Source: a virus (Duplodnaviria; Heunggongvirae; Uroviricota; Caudoviricetes). From it: a stretch of 39,175 nt of DNA. Shown piece by piece: positions 19,119-24,646 of this stretch. Made by a program: the position numbers and the translations under genes. The stretch's first letter is position 1; each line of letters starts with the position of its first letter. The stretch lies in IMG/VR virus record IMGVR_UViG_2627853910_000005; one strand, 5' to 3'. Below the pieces are notes generated by a model. That model was not told the origin of the DNA. It made no database searches and saw only the letters and a program-made list of their open reading frames with translations.

Positions 19119-19325
19119 TCAGTCAACCACCAGGGAATAATCCTTCGTATTCTTATCGTGCTTTACTAACGCGGCCTCAATTGCCCTGAATGCTTCCAGA
19201 GATACTTGATGTTCTATACATGCAATTACAACATCCGGGTAACCCATCGAAATGGTGCTATTAAGCATAGTTTTTACACGAACCTGCTCCTGGGAGGGGG
19301 CATCAGTGTATTGATCTTTATGCAT
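19119..19325 (-). CDS. Hypothetical small protein (68 aa)
   Basis: ATG with SD (GGAG, 8 nt spacing). Lies in the moron region between Nu1 and gnsB. No domain recognised. Confidence 0.4.
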
Positions 19326-19620
19326 TTTGTCGCTCCATTCGTTTGCTCTTCACTTGCGGCTAAAAATATAACGTCAAATCACTCAGCATGAAAGAGTGAA
19401 AGTTTCAGCGCGTTTCCCTTACATAATCTGTCGTTTGTATTCTCTTCAGGCATACCGGAAAGACTAGGTATTGTCACACAACCAATACCATTGACAATCG
19501 AGATTTATATCTATTCGGTAATGTTTAAATATAACAAAACCCCGTAAAAACGAGGTTTATGGGTAATTTGTATTGTTGAATAGCATCTGATGAGAAATTG
19601 ATGCTAATACTATAAACATG

Positions 19621-19794
19621 CTAGATTAAATCAATCTTGATATCATAGCTTTCAAGACCAGTCATTTTTTCCCGTGCAGTAAACTGGATACTGGTAACTT
19701 CTTTCCCGGTCTTTTTCTTAAGCTCAATGATTTTTTTTGTTATATATTCAGAAATATCTGCTTCTGTTTTTGTTTTTAACTCTTCAATGTTCAT
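19621..19794 (-). CDS. gnsB: GnsB-family protein (57 aa)
   Basis: MNIEELKTKTEADISEYITKKIIELKKKTGKEVTSIQFTAREKMTGLESYDIKIDLI matches the GnsA/GnsB family signature. Confidence 0.8.
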   Translation of the reverse strand: MNIEELKTKTEADISEYITKKIIELKKKTGKEVTSIQFTAREKMTGLESYDIKIDLI

Positions 19795-19966
19795 CATTTC
19801 CTCTTTTAGTCTGTTATGACTGTCCTGGTACACAGTAGTGTCAATTATATGGAGCAAACGTATAAAAGATAAGATGAAACATCGCAATAATCAACATACG
19901 ACGGTCTAAATTTCACACAAACAGATAAAGATGATTATCATTTATTATCAATGCATTAGAATCAAA

Positions 19967-20197
19967 TCAATTCAAGAGTCTCATTGCTGCTTCCAGAATT
20001 TCTTCTGAAGTTACATGTCGATCCGCTGCTACATAAATGACTTTATGATCTCCGGTCAGAGATGGAAACCCTGCAGCCATTACAGTGAGGTGTGTTGTTT
20101 CGCCATTTGGATATTCACGCATGATGGTGTTAACTCCGGTCATCACTGGCACTACCATTGCTGGTTCAGAGTTAAAAAAAACTATTATTTTTTTCAT
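19967..20197 (-). CDS. Hypothetical small protein (76 aa)
   Basis: Internal ATG (MKKIIVFFNSEPAMVV...) gives a protein-like product. Lies immediately downstream of the cspI terminator, so expression is uncertain. Confidence 0.4.
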   Translation of the reverse strand: MKKIIVFFNSEPAMVVPVMTGVNTIMREYPNGETTHLTVMAAGFPSLTGDHKVIYVAADRHVTSEEILEAAMRLLN

Positions 20198-20240
20198 AAT
20201 GTTACCGTAATATGTGAGTATCCATCGACTAGACACTAAG

Positions 20241-20262
20241 CAAAAAAGCTCCCGAAGGAGCC
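20241..20262 (-). terminator. Rho-independent terminator of cspI
   Basis: On the minus strand: GGCTCC-TTCG-GGAGC followed by TTTTTTG. Confidence 0.5.
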
Positions 20263-20468
20263 TTCATTTTCACTTTCTTAAATCTAACGACAGATGGCTA
20301 ACATTTAAGTATTGTGAAATATTATCAAATGTAATCATCATTGATTTACAAAAGATACATTTTGCCCCGAAAGGATTTCTGTCAGAAACATCAAAAGATG
20401 ATGTTCTATACTGAGAACCATGGCAACACGGGCATCTAAAGTGAATATGGTTTGTAATATTTTCTACC

Positions 20469-20684
20469 TCAAAGTGCCACTACATGAACAGCTGCAGGGC
20501 CTTTAGGTCCGTTCTCAATACCAAATTCGACTTCCTGATTCTCAGTTAACGTTTTGAAATCGTTGCTCTGAATAGCTGAGAAATGCACAAACACATCTTT
20601 GCTACCATCTTTCGGCGTGATGAAACCAAAACCTTTTTCAGGGTTAAACCATTTCACTAAACCAGTCATTTTGTTAAACATCAT
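20469..20684 (-). CDS. cspI: Cold shock protein (CspA family)
   Basis: [34 protein letters not shown] contains the RNP1/RNP2 cold-shock-domain motifs. About 70 aa. Long upstream leader, typical of csp genes. Confidence 0.85.
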
Positions 20685-21044
20685 TATTACCTTTTGAAGA
20701 AGTTAGCCCTTGGGCAGAATGGTCCGAAAAAAAATATCAGAGAGAAAAACCAACAAGGAAATCTCAAGAGGTACAAATAATAAAATTATAACAATGACTG
20801 CTTCAGATAATTTTGTAACAAACCAGAACACCATTAACGCATGATTAACCAACCATAGCAAGGATTACTTTTGTAAAGAAAAACACACGAATGAAACAAT
20901 AGCTTTATTTATTAATAAAACGTGTCATTCTGTCTAATGACCTTTTATCTTACCCTTAAGATTTCAAGGATTTTGACTCATGGAAGAGTCCTTTTTATTT
21001 AAATTTCACATTCAGCGCTAAAAATAATCCGATTTAATATTAAT

Positions 21045-21542
21045 CTACATCTGATATTTTTTATCTCTTAAAGATTCATAAATCCGTTGACAAGTCACTC
21101 CTGCGATGTAGCGTTTGTCAGCAATTTCAGCATAAAGCTGAGCTTCTGCTGCAATATCTCCGAGCATGTTGGTGAGCATTCCTTCGGCGGCTTTGGTTGT
21201 TTTGCCTCTGACGGCAGCGGCAAGATTTGCGGTATGCTGCGCTGCGTCAAGGCGTATGGCATATTTTGTTGCTTCGGCACGCAGCTGGTTAACACTATCA
21301 GACAGATCAGCAGCCCTGGCAGAAATTTCAGCGGCTTTCTGTTGTGCATCTTTAACAGCCTCATCACGGGATATACTTCGCCCCTGTTCAATTATTCGAG
21401 CAGCAAATTGGACATTTACCTCTTGAGATAATTCGGCAGCATCACGCTCCGCCCATTTTTTTTGCCATCCTCTGTCGCTCCAGACATTACCTACGACAAA
21501 TCCTACCAACACGAGCAAAATCACCGTGAATATCTGATTCAC
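21045..21542 (-). CDS. i-spanin (Rz-like)
   Basis: 165 aa with an N-terminal TM helix ([15 protein letters not shown]) and coiled-coil periplasmic domain. GTG start overlaps the endolysin stop. Confidence 0.75.
21095..21349 (-). CDS. o-spanin (Rz1-like lipoprotein) embedded in the +1 frame of Rz
   Basis: Lipobox LIVLTSC followed by a proline-rich segment ([17 protein letters not shown]). Fully nested inside the Rz gene. Confidence 0.55.
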
Positions 21543-22945: not shown

Positions 22946-22949
22946 TGGA

Positions 22950-23165
22950 TTACTCTCTTCTCGCAACCTTACGCCTGTCTTCTTTAATCTTGAAATAAAG
23001 GTTTGTCAGATACGTCAGCAGGCCAAAAACCAGACTACCCAGCACACCGATTGCAGCCCACTGTGACGGAGTTACTTTATCGAGTAACTGCAATGCCCAG
23101 AAACCAGCATTACCAGCCGATGTGCCATAGGCGATACCTGTTGTTAACTTATCCATTGATTTCAT
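22950..23165 (-). CDS. Class II holin (phage 21 S-type pinholin)
   Basis: 71 aa; [66 protein letters not shown] closely resembles S21. Two TM helices and a charged C-terminus. Confidence 0.85.
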
Positions 23166-23383
23166 ATCCTCACCCCGATGTACACAGATGGTGCAATATG
23201 TTTGAAAAGATCGGAGTCTATGGGTTAGTTTTTATAGCAAACGTTGTTCTCAACGGCGCTAAAAAACAGACACATTAAAAATGTGGGTAATTATTTTAAA
23301 AGAAAATCATATATTAAATAATAATACGAGATATGTTTTCATATTTAGTGTACTGTATACGGCCATTTATACAGGAAAAGCCT

Positions 23384-23554
23384 ATGTCAGAACGTAAAGA
23401 CTCAAAATCACGCCGTAATTATCTCGTTAAATGTTCCTGCCCAAACTGCACCCAAGAGTCAGAACACAGTTTTTCAAGAGTACAAAAAGGTGCCCTTTTG
23501 ATCTGCCCTCATTGCAACAAAGTATTCCAGACAAATCTTAAAGCTGTAGCTTGA
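23384..23554 (+). CDS. Small zinc-ribbon protein (56 aa)
   Basis: ATG with SD AGGAAAAG. Two Cys pairs (CSCPNC ... CPHC). Followed by a terminator. Confidence 0.45.
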   Translation: MSERKDSKSRRNYLVKCSCPNCTQESEHSFSRVQKGALLICPHCNKVFQTNLKAVA

Positions 23555-23613
23555 TTGATTTTATTCGTAACAAGTATTTTTTATATTTTAATAACATATT
23601 TAAAGCAGATAAT

Positions 23614-23637
23614 AAAAAACCCGCCTGAGCGGGTTTA
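23614..23637. terminator. Bidirectional rho-independent terminator
   Basis: AACCCGC-CTGA-GCGGGTT stem flanked by an A-run upstream and T-rich sequence downstream. Confidence 0.5.
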
Positions 23638-23917
23638 ATATTGTGGTACTTTTTGTGGGAGTCATCCACTTACGCACTTTGTTTTGCTATGCCAGCAGTT
23701 AGCTTCTGCTGTAAAACTATTCATGCAGCAAACCTGCACTTCACCACAATGGTTAGCATACTTTTCCTGATTAAGTTATTGCCAAATATGCTGGCCATTG
23801 TTTCATGTATTGGACCTCCTTACTATTTATTAAAGAGATCCAATATTCACCACTCTGTCTGTATCTCCACTCAGGCATCAGCCTTCTTCGTTATCGTATA
23901 CAGACAAACTATGAATT

Positions 23918-24133
23918 TTAATCAGTAATTATGACATTTGCTGCTGCAGGACCTTTAGCACCACTCTCTACAGAGAAGGTAACCTTTTGACCTTCAAACA
24001 AGGTTCGAAAATTATCATTCTGAATCGCAGAAAAATGCACAAACACATCTTTACTACCATCAACAGGAGAAATAAAGCCAAAACCTTTATCAGCGTTAAA
24101 CCATTTTACTAAACCAGTCATTTTATTTGACAT
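23918..24133 (-). CDS. cspB: Cold shock protein (CspA family)
   Basis: [38 protein letters not shown]... is a canonical cold-shock domain. Divergent from cspF, as in Qin. Confidence 0.85.
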
Positions 24134-24433
24134 TCTACATTCCTTAACTTGAGCCTTTCGGCATAAATGGCTTGTATAACAGAAACGACTTCGTACTTAA
24201 TTGGAGAGACTCAAAGAAGGAATAAGTGAATAACACCTGAAATGAGAACTGCTTTAGTAAACTACTTCGTATATCGTCTGTTCTTCAAACCGACGCAATC
24301 ATTAACGCATAGTTGAACATATGAAGCAATGTTTATTTTAGACATCCAGCCATCTTCAACCCCATCAAAAAACTATAGCTTTCTTCAGGAACGTGTGTAT
24401 AGTGCGCCCAGTTATCAGTATTAAGGAATTTTT

Positions 24434-24646
24434 TTGTCCCGTAAAATGACAGGAATTGTCAAAACCTTTGACGGCAAAAGCGGCAAGGGTCTTATCACCC
24501 CATCCGATGGTCGTATCGATGTCCAGCTTCATGTTTCAGCGCTCAATCTCCGCGATGCAGAAGAAATTACCACCGGATTACGCGTGGAATTTTGCCGGAT
24601 AAATGGTCTGCGTGGCCCTTCAGCTGCCAATGTTTACCTTTCATGA
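24434..24646 (+). CDS. cspF: Cold shock protein paralogue (CspF/CspH-like)
   Basis: [38 protein letters not shown]... is a divergent cold-shock domain. Apparent TTG start with SD TAAGGAA 5 nt upstream. Confidence 0.8.

Follow-up and report, generated by a model that had tools for sequence, protein, structure and literature searches.

Genes and cassettes of the region

The DNA examined here is IMG/VR record IMGVR_UViG_2627853910_000005, a caudoviral stretch of 39,175 nucleotides (the window), whose region 19119-24646 carries three CspA-family cold-shock genes, cspI, cspB and cspF, together with gnsB, among the lysis and packaging genes of a lambdoid prophage. The region very probably represents late-operon accessory cargo of a Qin-type lambdoid E. 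coli phage, arranged as two AT-rich cassettes in the classic insertion slots. The four genes are as follows:

20469-20684, minus strand: cspI; PF00313 match of 108.3 bits; RefSeq start at 20681
23918-24133, minus strand: cspB; PF00313 match of 109.3 bits
24434-24646, plus strand: cspF, encoding a divergent cold-shock domain (CSD) protein; PF00313 match of 77.8 bits
19621-19794, minus strand: gnsB; PF08178 match of 114.5 bits over 54/54 profile positions; phrog_2301

The initial annotation had placed three CspA-family genes and gnsB here, and the open reading frames (ORFs) are present, with scores far above the Pfam cut-offs (27 bits for both CSD PF00313 and GnsAB PF08178). The four are clearly real genes and not chance ORFs. 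The proteins of 70-71 amino acids encoded by cspI, cspB and cspF all fall into the cold-shock domain family of Pfam. Protein alignment to the E. coli K-12 counterparts, proposed earlier as a check, gave 69/70 identical residues for CspI (single change S2F), 69/71 for CspB and 70/70 for CspF; the 57 residues of GnsB are identical to K-12 GnsB at 53 positions (93%), with 65% identity to GnsA. That Qin-type prophages house cspB, cspF, cspI and gnsB has been textbook knowledge since the 1990s; the gene set itself was already known, and its earlier interpretation is correct for the most part but lacks precision.

The RNP1 (KGFGFI) and RNP2 (VFVHF) motifs, with their aromatic residues, are intact in CspI and CspB, as the initial annotation had expected of the whole set. 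CspF, though above the CSD cut-off, carries SGKGLI in the place of RNP1 and VQLHV in that of RNP2, so that the aromatic residues are absent, as they are in CspF and CspH of K-12 (PMC6719143). In K-12, CspB and CspI are cold induced, and cspF is hardly expressed and has no known function (PMC4956666). CspF also gives a weak match to the PADLOC model 'CSD_V', which describes the CSD component of a candidate defence system (23.4 bits, E = 9e-6). The RefSeq version of cspI (20469-20681) starts one codon later than 20684; as alignment with K-12 reveals a T-to-G change that gives a tandem ATG ATG at the start of the gene in the window, either start is defensible.

The late operon is read from the minus strand in the order Q, cassette 1, lysis genes, cassette 2 and terminase, which bears out the described interleaving of the cargo with lysis and packaging genes. 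Cassette 1 lies in the slot between Q and the holin gene and consists of an ynfS-like ORF (+), cspF (+), cspB (-) and ynfU (+). Cassette 2 occupies the slot between the spanin and terminase genes and contains cspI, an ynfQ-like gene, an ynfR remnant, ynfN, gnsB and a ybcW-like ORF. The G+C content is 37.4% in cassette 1 and 35.6% in cassette 2, as compared to 45-49% in the lysis genes and 52-54% in Q and the terminase genes. The edges of the slots, the lysis genes and the remaining cargo are listed in late-operon order, with ydfK at the end:

25062-25814, minus strand: antiterminator Q, ydfT/quuQ type, upstream edge of slot 1 (ORF, RefSeq annotation)
25002-25030, minus strand: candidate late promoter pR', TTGCAT, 17 nt, TAAAAT (read from the sequence)
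24701-24790, plus strand: ynfS-like 29-codon ORF (RefSeq in identical genomes; K-12 ynfS at the same place)
23384-23554, plus strand: ynfU, zinc-binding small protein (PF23499, 106.9 bits; NF038384, 79.8 bits)
22950-23165, minus strand: essQ, class II holin, downstream edge of slot 1 (PF04971, 116 bits)
22394-22966, minus strand: ydfR-like DUF1327 protein, long form (PF07041, 140.7 bits; phrog_2091, 183/183)
22186-22446, plus strand: antisense 86-residue ORF (orf86), function unassigned (phrog_2572, 86/86)
21539-22072, minus strand: rrrQ endolysin (ORF, annotation)
21045-21542, minus strand: rzpQ spanin, with the rzoQ lipoprotein ORF embedded at about 21095-21349
20270-20458, minus strand: small zinc-ribbon protein of the ynfQ/ymcF type, in RefSeq a 'cold shock small protein' with an ATT start
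20229-20267, minus strand: ynfR remnant, 12 codons, TAT to TAG (sequence comparison with K-12)
19967-20197, minus strand: ynfN, full-length form of 76 residues (phrog_3425, 76/76)
19119-19325, minus strand: ybcW-like ORF, 68 residues, function unassigned (phrog_657, 68/68, 162 bits)
18075-18566, minus strand: terminase small subunit, DUF1441, nohA-like, downstream edge of slot 2 (annotation)
1-234, plus strand: ydfK, annotated 'cold shock protein YdfK' (phrog_2718, 77/77; RefSeq annotation in S88)

Several of these genes had been overlooked as cargo, namely ynfU, ynfS, ynfQ, ynfR, ynfN and the ybcW-like ORF, plus ydfK, which adds further cold-related cargo past the tail fibres and the pin invertase, where the late region ends; the leader of ydfK falls outside the window. 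The ynfQ-like protein is 94% identical to K-12 YnfQ and 69% to YmcF, and has a CxC...CxxC motif. Comparison with window positions 19960-20290 reveals that ynfN of K-12 has been shortened by the loss of 1 nt within a T run. A segment of 0.66 kb (22082-22740) that is not present in K-12 Qin holds orf86 and lengthens ydfR to 190 residues; the RefSeq label of the long ydfR as a pseudogene may be wrong, because phrog_2091 matched it over 183/183 positions. The terminase genes, large subunit following small, are preceded by a stretch of about 550 bp that should hold cos. The sequence TTGCAT-17-TAAAAT just downstream of Q may be pR'; its -35 hexamer matches the consensus at only 3/6 positions, and it was not called by the consensus promoter scan.

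Control signals and probable transcription units

The promoters and leaders of the csp genes were analysed with the Rfam model of the cspA thermoregulator (RF01766, gathering score 78) and by alignment with K-12 cspA, cspB, cspG and cspI. The cspB leader matches the full model (positions 1-428) with 160.4 bits over 23855-24294, the cspI leader scores 104.9 bits over 20423-20839, and the RF01766 search matched nothing at cspF. The alignment displays an AT-rich upstream element common to all and conservation of the promoter, cold box, upstream box and start region. The promoter of cspB and cspI is of the cspA type, with -35 TTGCTx, a 17-nt spacer and the extended -10 TGcGTTAAT. The elements identified are:

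24134-24329, minus strand: leader and promoter of cspB (Rfam RF01766, alignment)
24329-24324, minus strand: -35 of cspB, TTGCTT, followed by TGc-GTTAAT with its hexamer at 24306-24301 (alignment)
24294, minus strand: G, predicted transcription start of cspB (Rfam/alignment)
24287-24276, minus strand: cold box of cspB, TGAAGAACAGAC (alignment)
24162-24150, minus strand: upstream box of cspB, GCCGAAAGGCTCA (alignment)
20682-20861, minus strand: leader and promoter of cspI (Rfam RF01766, alignment)
20861-20856, minus strand: -35 of cspI, TTGCTA, followed by the extended -10 TGc-GTTAAT with its hexamer at 20838-20833 (alignment)

Leader lengths of 145 nt and 161 nt, known from the literature on CspI, agree with the positions found here. 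The cold-box elements, whose presence had been raised as a check, are complete in cspB; cspI retains the upstream box GCCCAAGGGC but only a truncated cold box; and cspF has no cspA-type leader. By leader and promoter, cspB and cspI belong to the cold-inducible cspA/B/G/I class and cspF does not, which restricts the cold-sensing leader to two of the three paralogues. CspF appears to stand outside the cold response and is not to be counted as cold-adaptation cargo, because it has neither a cspA-type leader nor the aromatic residues of RNP1 and RNP2; the description of the three paralogues as cargo for cold adaptation has to be narrowed to this extent. In K-12, termination by Rho in the cspB leader depends on temperature (PMC12360218).

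The consensus sigma-70 scan returned 14 sites against 16.2 expected from shuffled sequence, i.e., no excess, and it missed the cspB and cspI promoters because their -35 hexamers match the consensus at only 3/6 positions (TTG). For gnsB and cspF, only weak candidate promoters can be named.

Each cargo gene had also been credited with its own terminator, which agrees only partly with the terminator-like hairpins of the region:

19537-19558, minus strand: terminator-like hairpin of gnsB, 9 bp then UUUUGUUAUAUUU; -11 kcal/mol, z = -2.3
23617-23636, minus strand: canonical terminator-like hairpin between the convergent cspB and ynfU, 8 bp and six U; -15.5 kcal/mol, z = -4.45
24933-24956, both strands: bidirectional hairpin; -14.4 kcal/mol (z = -5.9) on the plus strand and -21.3 kcal/mol (z = -5.5) on the minus strand

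The hairpin of gnsB (19558-19537), with a U-rich tail, lies 63 nt downstream of the gene. No structure was found directly past the cspI stop (folding z = +0.74); the first terminator-like hairpin on that side, GCUCC-UUCG-GGAGC then six U, is located at 20261-20248, after the ynfQ-like ORF and within ynfR. The stable stem-loop directly past cspB (23908-23855, -25 kcal/mol) has no U tract, and the first canonical terminator (23636-23617) follows 280 nt downstream. The hairpin that serves cspF (24933-24956) lies 287 nt downstream, past ynfS, and closes cspF-ynfS on the plus strand; read on the minus strand (24956-24933), the same structure is likely to be tR' of the late operon. The hairpins close four units and not every single gene, the likely transcription units being cspF-ynfS, cspB with its 280-nt tail, cspI-ynfQ(-ynfR) and ynfN-gnsB.

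The hairpin inside ynfR (20248-20261) may be leaky, and possibly acts as an attenuator, because the YnfR protein is cold induced in K-12 (PMC6001520) and cspI, ynfQ and ynfN rise about equally there (6.5-, 5.9- and 5.8-fold, respectively; PMC11228462). Between cspB and the terminator at 23636-23617 sits an 11-codon ORF, MKQWPAYLAIT (23771-23806, minus strand), which a perfect AGGAGG precedes by 8 nt; the ORF is exactly conserved in 28 of the loci compared, all 28 being near-identical DNA.

Distribution and proposed role of the cargo

The cargo is also carried by complete phages. The whole 5.8-kb cargo/lysis region is 98.7% identical in phage PhiR63_1 (PV340573), a complete genome of 48 kb in which the same cargo is coupled to a lambda-type Nu1-A-W-B-Nu3-D-E head module, and 99.5% identical in phage 2H10 (NC_049950). 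Phages HannyBb, Tritos and PhiR42_1 also carry it, and identity across the phages compared ranges from 92.7 to 99.5%. A set of IMG/VR viral contigs with an identical GnsB was used for cassette counts, 63 of them having enough flank: cspI-ynfQ-ynfN is found in 63/63, and cspF-cspB-ynfU in only 36-37 of the 63. Among 74 related viral contigs, the ybcW-like ORF is present in 73 and the terminase type of the window in only 20. Both cassettes are absent from phage mEp460, and only cassette 2 is present in mEp460_ev081. Acquisition of this cassette 2 from K-12 Qin was considered and rejected, as it comes with the ybcW-like ORF and the long form of ynfN, neither of which occurs in Qin.

From this pattern of presence and absence, the two cassettes are seen to behave as separate modules that move with the lysis cassette across phage backbones, i.e., independently assorting units at the standard lambdoid cargo slots. 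Since the same cargo (98-99%) is found in complete phages and in the sampled viral contigs, it is a regular part of the outfit of these phages and does not owe its retention to the death of a prophage. The initial annotation had taken it as retained in a defective prophage; the window's copy is indeed defective, through a 5520-bp loss and a frameshift, but the cargo belongs to active phages (98.7-99.5% identity) as well as to dead prophages.

The further label of a Qin-type moron set is apt as regards collinearity with Qin (91/94%), low G+C content and variable presence, and misleads where it suggests Qin itself. As expected of morons, the genes are present or absent between otherwise adjacent phage genes and differ from their neighbours in base composition; as to signals of their own, cspB and cspI have cspA-type promoters, and the hairpins are distributed per unit, not per gene. 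The literature search returned nothing specific on the PhiR phages or on papers that treat these genes as morons.

In a repressed lysogen, cspB and cspI would be expressed by themselves after a temperature downshift, without need of Q, from their own cspA-type promoters and thermosensing leaders. The leaders would then refold, escape Rho-dependent termination and be translated, as described for the K-12 orthologues (PMC12360218, PMC4956666). The products, as canonical RNA chaperones, would enlarge the host pool of CspA and CspG, and GnsB, by analogy with K-12, would lead to more unsaturated fatty acid when overproduced. The downstream hairpins would insulate the holin/lysis and terminase/packaging genes from cargo transcription, and during lytic growth the Q-modified polymerase would read through them; both insulation and read-through are inferred. 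Cold induction and host benefit of the window's cargo are presumptive and drawn from the K-12 literature. Any benefit of the csp genes would be redundant and probably small, because cold sensitivity in K-12 requires the quadruple deletion of cspA, cspB, cspE and cspG (PMC4956666).

Certain observations weigh against this interpretation. The cspI gene is without a terminator of its own, and the hairpin past ynfQ may leak, as it lies in an ORF that is cold induced in K-12. The cspI leader has the truncated cold box and the lower Rfam score, and the cspB and cspI promoters were read by eye and alignment and are not called by the consensus scan. The function ascribed to GnsB derives from multicopy phenotypes in K-12, and databases also apply a toxin label to it. 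Five cargo genes have the orientation of the late transcript and may thus have a part in lytic growth.

One alternative is that the cassettes form a 'cold kit' of the phage, cotranscribed with the late operon in viable Qin-type phages, and not cargo for the benefit of the lysogen, with Csp antitermination acting also at the leaky ynfR hairpin and lysis tuned by GnsB; so stated, it is considered unlikely. On this view, the cassettes would be made with the lysis and virion proteins from the Q-dependent late transcript, the Csp proteins would act as chaperones or antiterminators that keep this long transcript flowing, and GnsB would adjust the membrane lipids so that holin/spanin lysis works when induction occurs in the cold; this is likewise rated as unlikely. 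The orientation of cspB, cspI, ynfQ, ynfN and gnsB with the late operon fits such a role, as do the position of cassette 2 directly after the spanin genes, its presence in 63/63 viral contigs and the 98-99% identity kept in complete phage genomes. CspA-family proteins are, moreover, transcription antiterminators, as Bae 2000 is cited to this effect in PMC4956666. However, own cspA-type promoters, leaders and hairpins are typical of genes expressed from a repressed prophage; cassette 1 is missing in about 40% of otherwise related contigs and both cassettes in mEp460; and K-12 Qin is unable to grow lytically, yet the genes are kept and are still cold inducible there.

A second alternative concerns gnsB, which could encode a toxin in place of a lipid modulator and, as part of a toxin-antitoxin (addiction) module, stabilise the prophage. 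The nomenclature favours it: Pfam names the family 'GnsA/GnsB toxin of bacterial toxin-antitoxin system', RefSeq names the product 'addiction module toxin', and ymcE-gnsA has been counted among the type II pairs of E. coli (PMC8484670). However, the region holds no counterpart of ymcE; the upstream ynfN product shares 20% identity with YmcE, with no real alignment, and the gap between ynfN and gnsB is 172 nt, whereas ymcE and gnsA overlap. A PADLOC search gave no match for a toxin-antitoxin reading of gnsB. Plasmids carrying gnsA or gnsB rescue low-temperature growth defects, so that gnsB rescues growth and does not kill (bioRxiv 10.1101/2024.03.27.586906). The same preprint cites Sugai 2001 for an increase of 16:1 and 18:1 fatty acids by gnsA, and for more unsaturated fatty acids and suppression of secG-null and fabA6 upon overexpression of GnsA/GnsB. 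As YnfN is unrelated to YmcE and PADLOC gave no match, the toxin was rejected as the principal interpretation of gnsB and is regarded as very improbable.

The prophage and its known relatives

Several genomes of avian and extra-intestinal pathogenic E. coli contain the 5.8-kb cargo/lysis region with 100% identity. The closest relatives of the whole element are found in the S88 and APEC O1 chromosomes (ST95-type extra-intestinal pathogenic E. coli, ExPEC, and avian pathogenic E. coli, APEC), with 99.9-100% identity over window 1-27424; window 1-25000 is 100% identical to them apart from one gap. There, the element adjoins prfC and has complete terminase, head and tail modules, and the order in S88 is dinI-like gene, ynfT, ydfK, tail fibres, tail, head, terminase, cargo/lysis region, Q, early genes and integrase. 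As the window begins exactly at ydfK and ends at the start codon of the integrase gene, it covers almost the whole prophage. The integrase gene (37937-39175) is adjoined by an anti-phage dCTP deaminase gene (36189-37784, plus strand; 468 bits with NCBIfam NF041025 and 548 bits with the PADLOC dCTPase model).

The gap marks the damage to the window's copy:

15574-15575, no strand: deletion junction, 5520 bp relative to S88 (alignment with S88)

Lost with this deletion are the protease/capsid fusion, the head-tail genes and tail U, together with the greater part of both the portal gene and the gene for major tail protein V. No match spanning 15574/15575 was found among 5,426 complete E. coli genomes, from which the deletion is private or recent; it may also be an assembly artefact. 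The side tail fibre gene (792 residues) has lost 1 bp near 4530 as compared to S88 and is thereby broken into ORFs at 2668-3951 and 3918-5051 (minus strand), a condition like the stf frameshift of laboratory lambda. As the genes from portal through major tail protein are deleted and the side tail fibre gene is frameshifted, both being intact in S88 and APEC O1, the window's copy is a defective prophage, which is related to that of S88/APEC O1 and suffered its damage recently, and is not K-12 Qin. The identical cargo region also occurs in E. coli FY26 (NZ_CP101741, 863110-908910), in a rearranged, partly triplicated prophage array with repeated yfdP-yfdQ and cI-like segments, where the lysis and terminase genes of a second phage abut a truncated tail gene.

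That the window is the cryptic Qin of a K-12-like strain, its cargo staying only since a dead prophage cannot leave, is hardly credible: collinearity of the late-region cargo and the missing portal, capsid and major tail genes would suit it, but the prfC site and complete modules of the nearest genomes, the complete phages with the same cargo and the junction search, which makes the defect recent or private, contradict it. Alignment with K-12 Qin gave 99% identity over window 1-1350 (ydfK-pin; the ydfK-pinQ DNA), 91% over 19484-22082 and 94% over 22740-26145, and no similarity outside window 1-1350 and 19484-26145, with the gap at 22082-22740. Integration at ydfJ and a degraded structural region, the marks of Qin, do not describe this element. 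It is a Qin-like lambdoid prophage with the late-region cargo of Qin, and not Qin itself, because its 100%-identical relatives adjoin prfC and have full head and tail modules.

The late order of K-12 Qin is ydfT(Q), ynfS, cspF, cspB, ynfU, essQ, ydfR, rrrQ, rzpQ/rzoQ, cspI, ynfQ, ynfR, ynfN and gnsB. The genes, their order and orientation are the same in the window, as are the cspB and cspI leaders and promoters, with 91-94% identity of the DNA and 93-100% of the proteins. The differences lie in the site (Qin at ydfJ, the window's identical relatives at prfC) and in the structural genes, of which only nohA, stfQ and tfaQ are left in Qin, whereas the terminase and most tail genes are kept here. 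The ybcW-like ORF takes the place of ynfO/ydfO of K-12, and the 0.66 kb with orf86 and the long ydfR is extra. A frameshift affects ynfN of K-12 but not the full-length copy of the window; conversely, it is ynfR that is cut short here.

Classic lambdoid cargo is placed in the same way: cassette 1 sits where Stx phages have stx, from Q to S, and cassette 2 where lambda has bor, from Rz to cos; lom is a cargo gene in the tail region of lambda. The window has an Ail/Lom-family outer-membrane protein gene (5110-5709, minus strand) in its tail region, at the lambda lom slot. The cassettes resemble these morons (stx, bor, lom) in their late-operon insertion slots, low G+C content and variable presence among related phages, and they have candidate promoter and terminator signals of their own. 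They differ in that the cargo here is related to cold shock and lipids, whereas that of the classic morons is related to virulence, and in that cspB and cspI are controlled mainly via an RNA leader.

A third comparison is with the host locus cspH, cspG, ymcF, ymcE and gnsA of K-12, which is collinear with region 19621-24646 minus the lysis cassette: a divergent csp pair is followed by a zinc-ribbon small protein and then a Gns protein. Over 635 nt, the stretch from cspH into the first 70-115 nt of cspG is 76% identical to that from cspF into the 5' end of cspB, the intergenic regions included; the rest of cspG and ymcF match cspI and ynfQ with 74% over 360 nt; and gnsA and gnsB DNA are 73% identical. 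K-12 cspG is hybrid-like, its promoter, leader and first ~70 nt being cspB-like and its 3' side cspI-like. Sliding-window analysis and a count of informative sites place the switch near nt 70 of the coding sequence, with 85 cspB-like against 22 cspI-like sites on the left and 47 against 103 on the right (Fisher p about 1e-14, at the best breakpoint and uncorrected for choosing it).

In the window, cspB and cspI form direct repeats (115 nt, 83% identity) around a lysis cassette of 3.45 kb. A single recombination step between these repeats would remove the lysis genes and leave an architecture like that of cspH-gnsA, and the host locus cspH, cspG, ymcF, gnsA would on this basis be an ancient product of such a collapse. 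A synthetic collapsed query, built by joining cspF and the 5' part of cspB to the segment that runs from the 3' part of cspI to gnsB, had no one-piece match in any of the 5,426 complete E. coli genomes. Recent collapse was rejected on this ground, only the old, ~75%-identical cspG locus fitting the scheme; the event is not recurrent and, if real, would be ancient and single. The Csp phylogeny paper makes no mention of phages.

As compared to the phage region, the host locus has no lysis genes between its csp genes and no phage context, and its ymcE, being unrelated to ynfN, does not fit the collapse scheme. The divergence of about 25% makes the relationship between the two loci old, and cspG as a cspB/cspI hybrid may be of interest to those studying how prophage genes become host genes.

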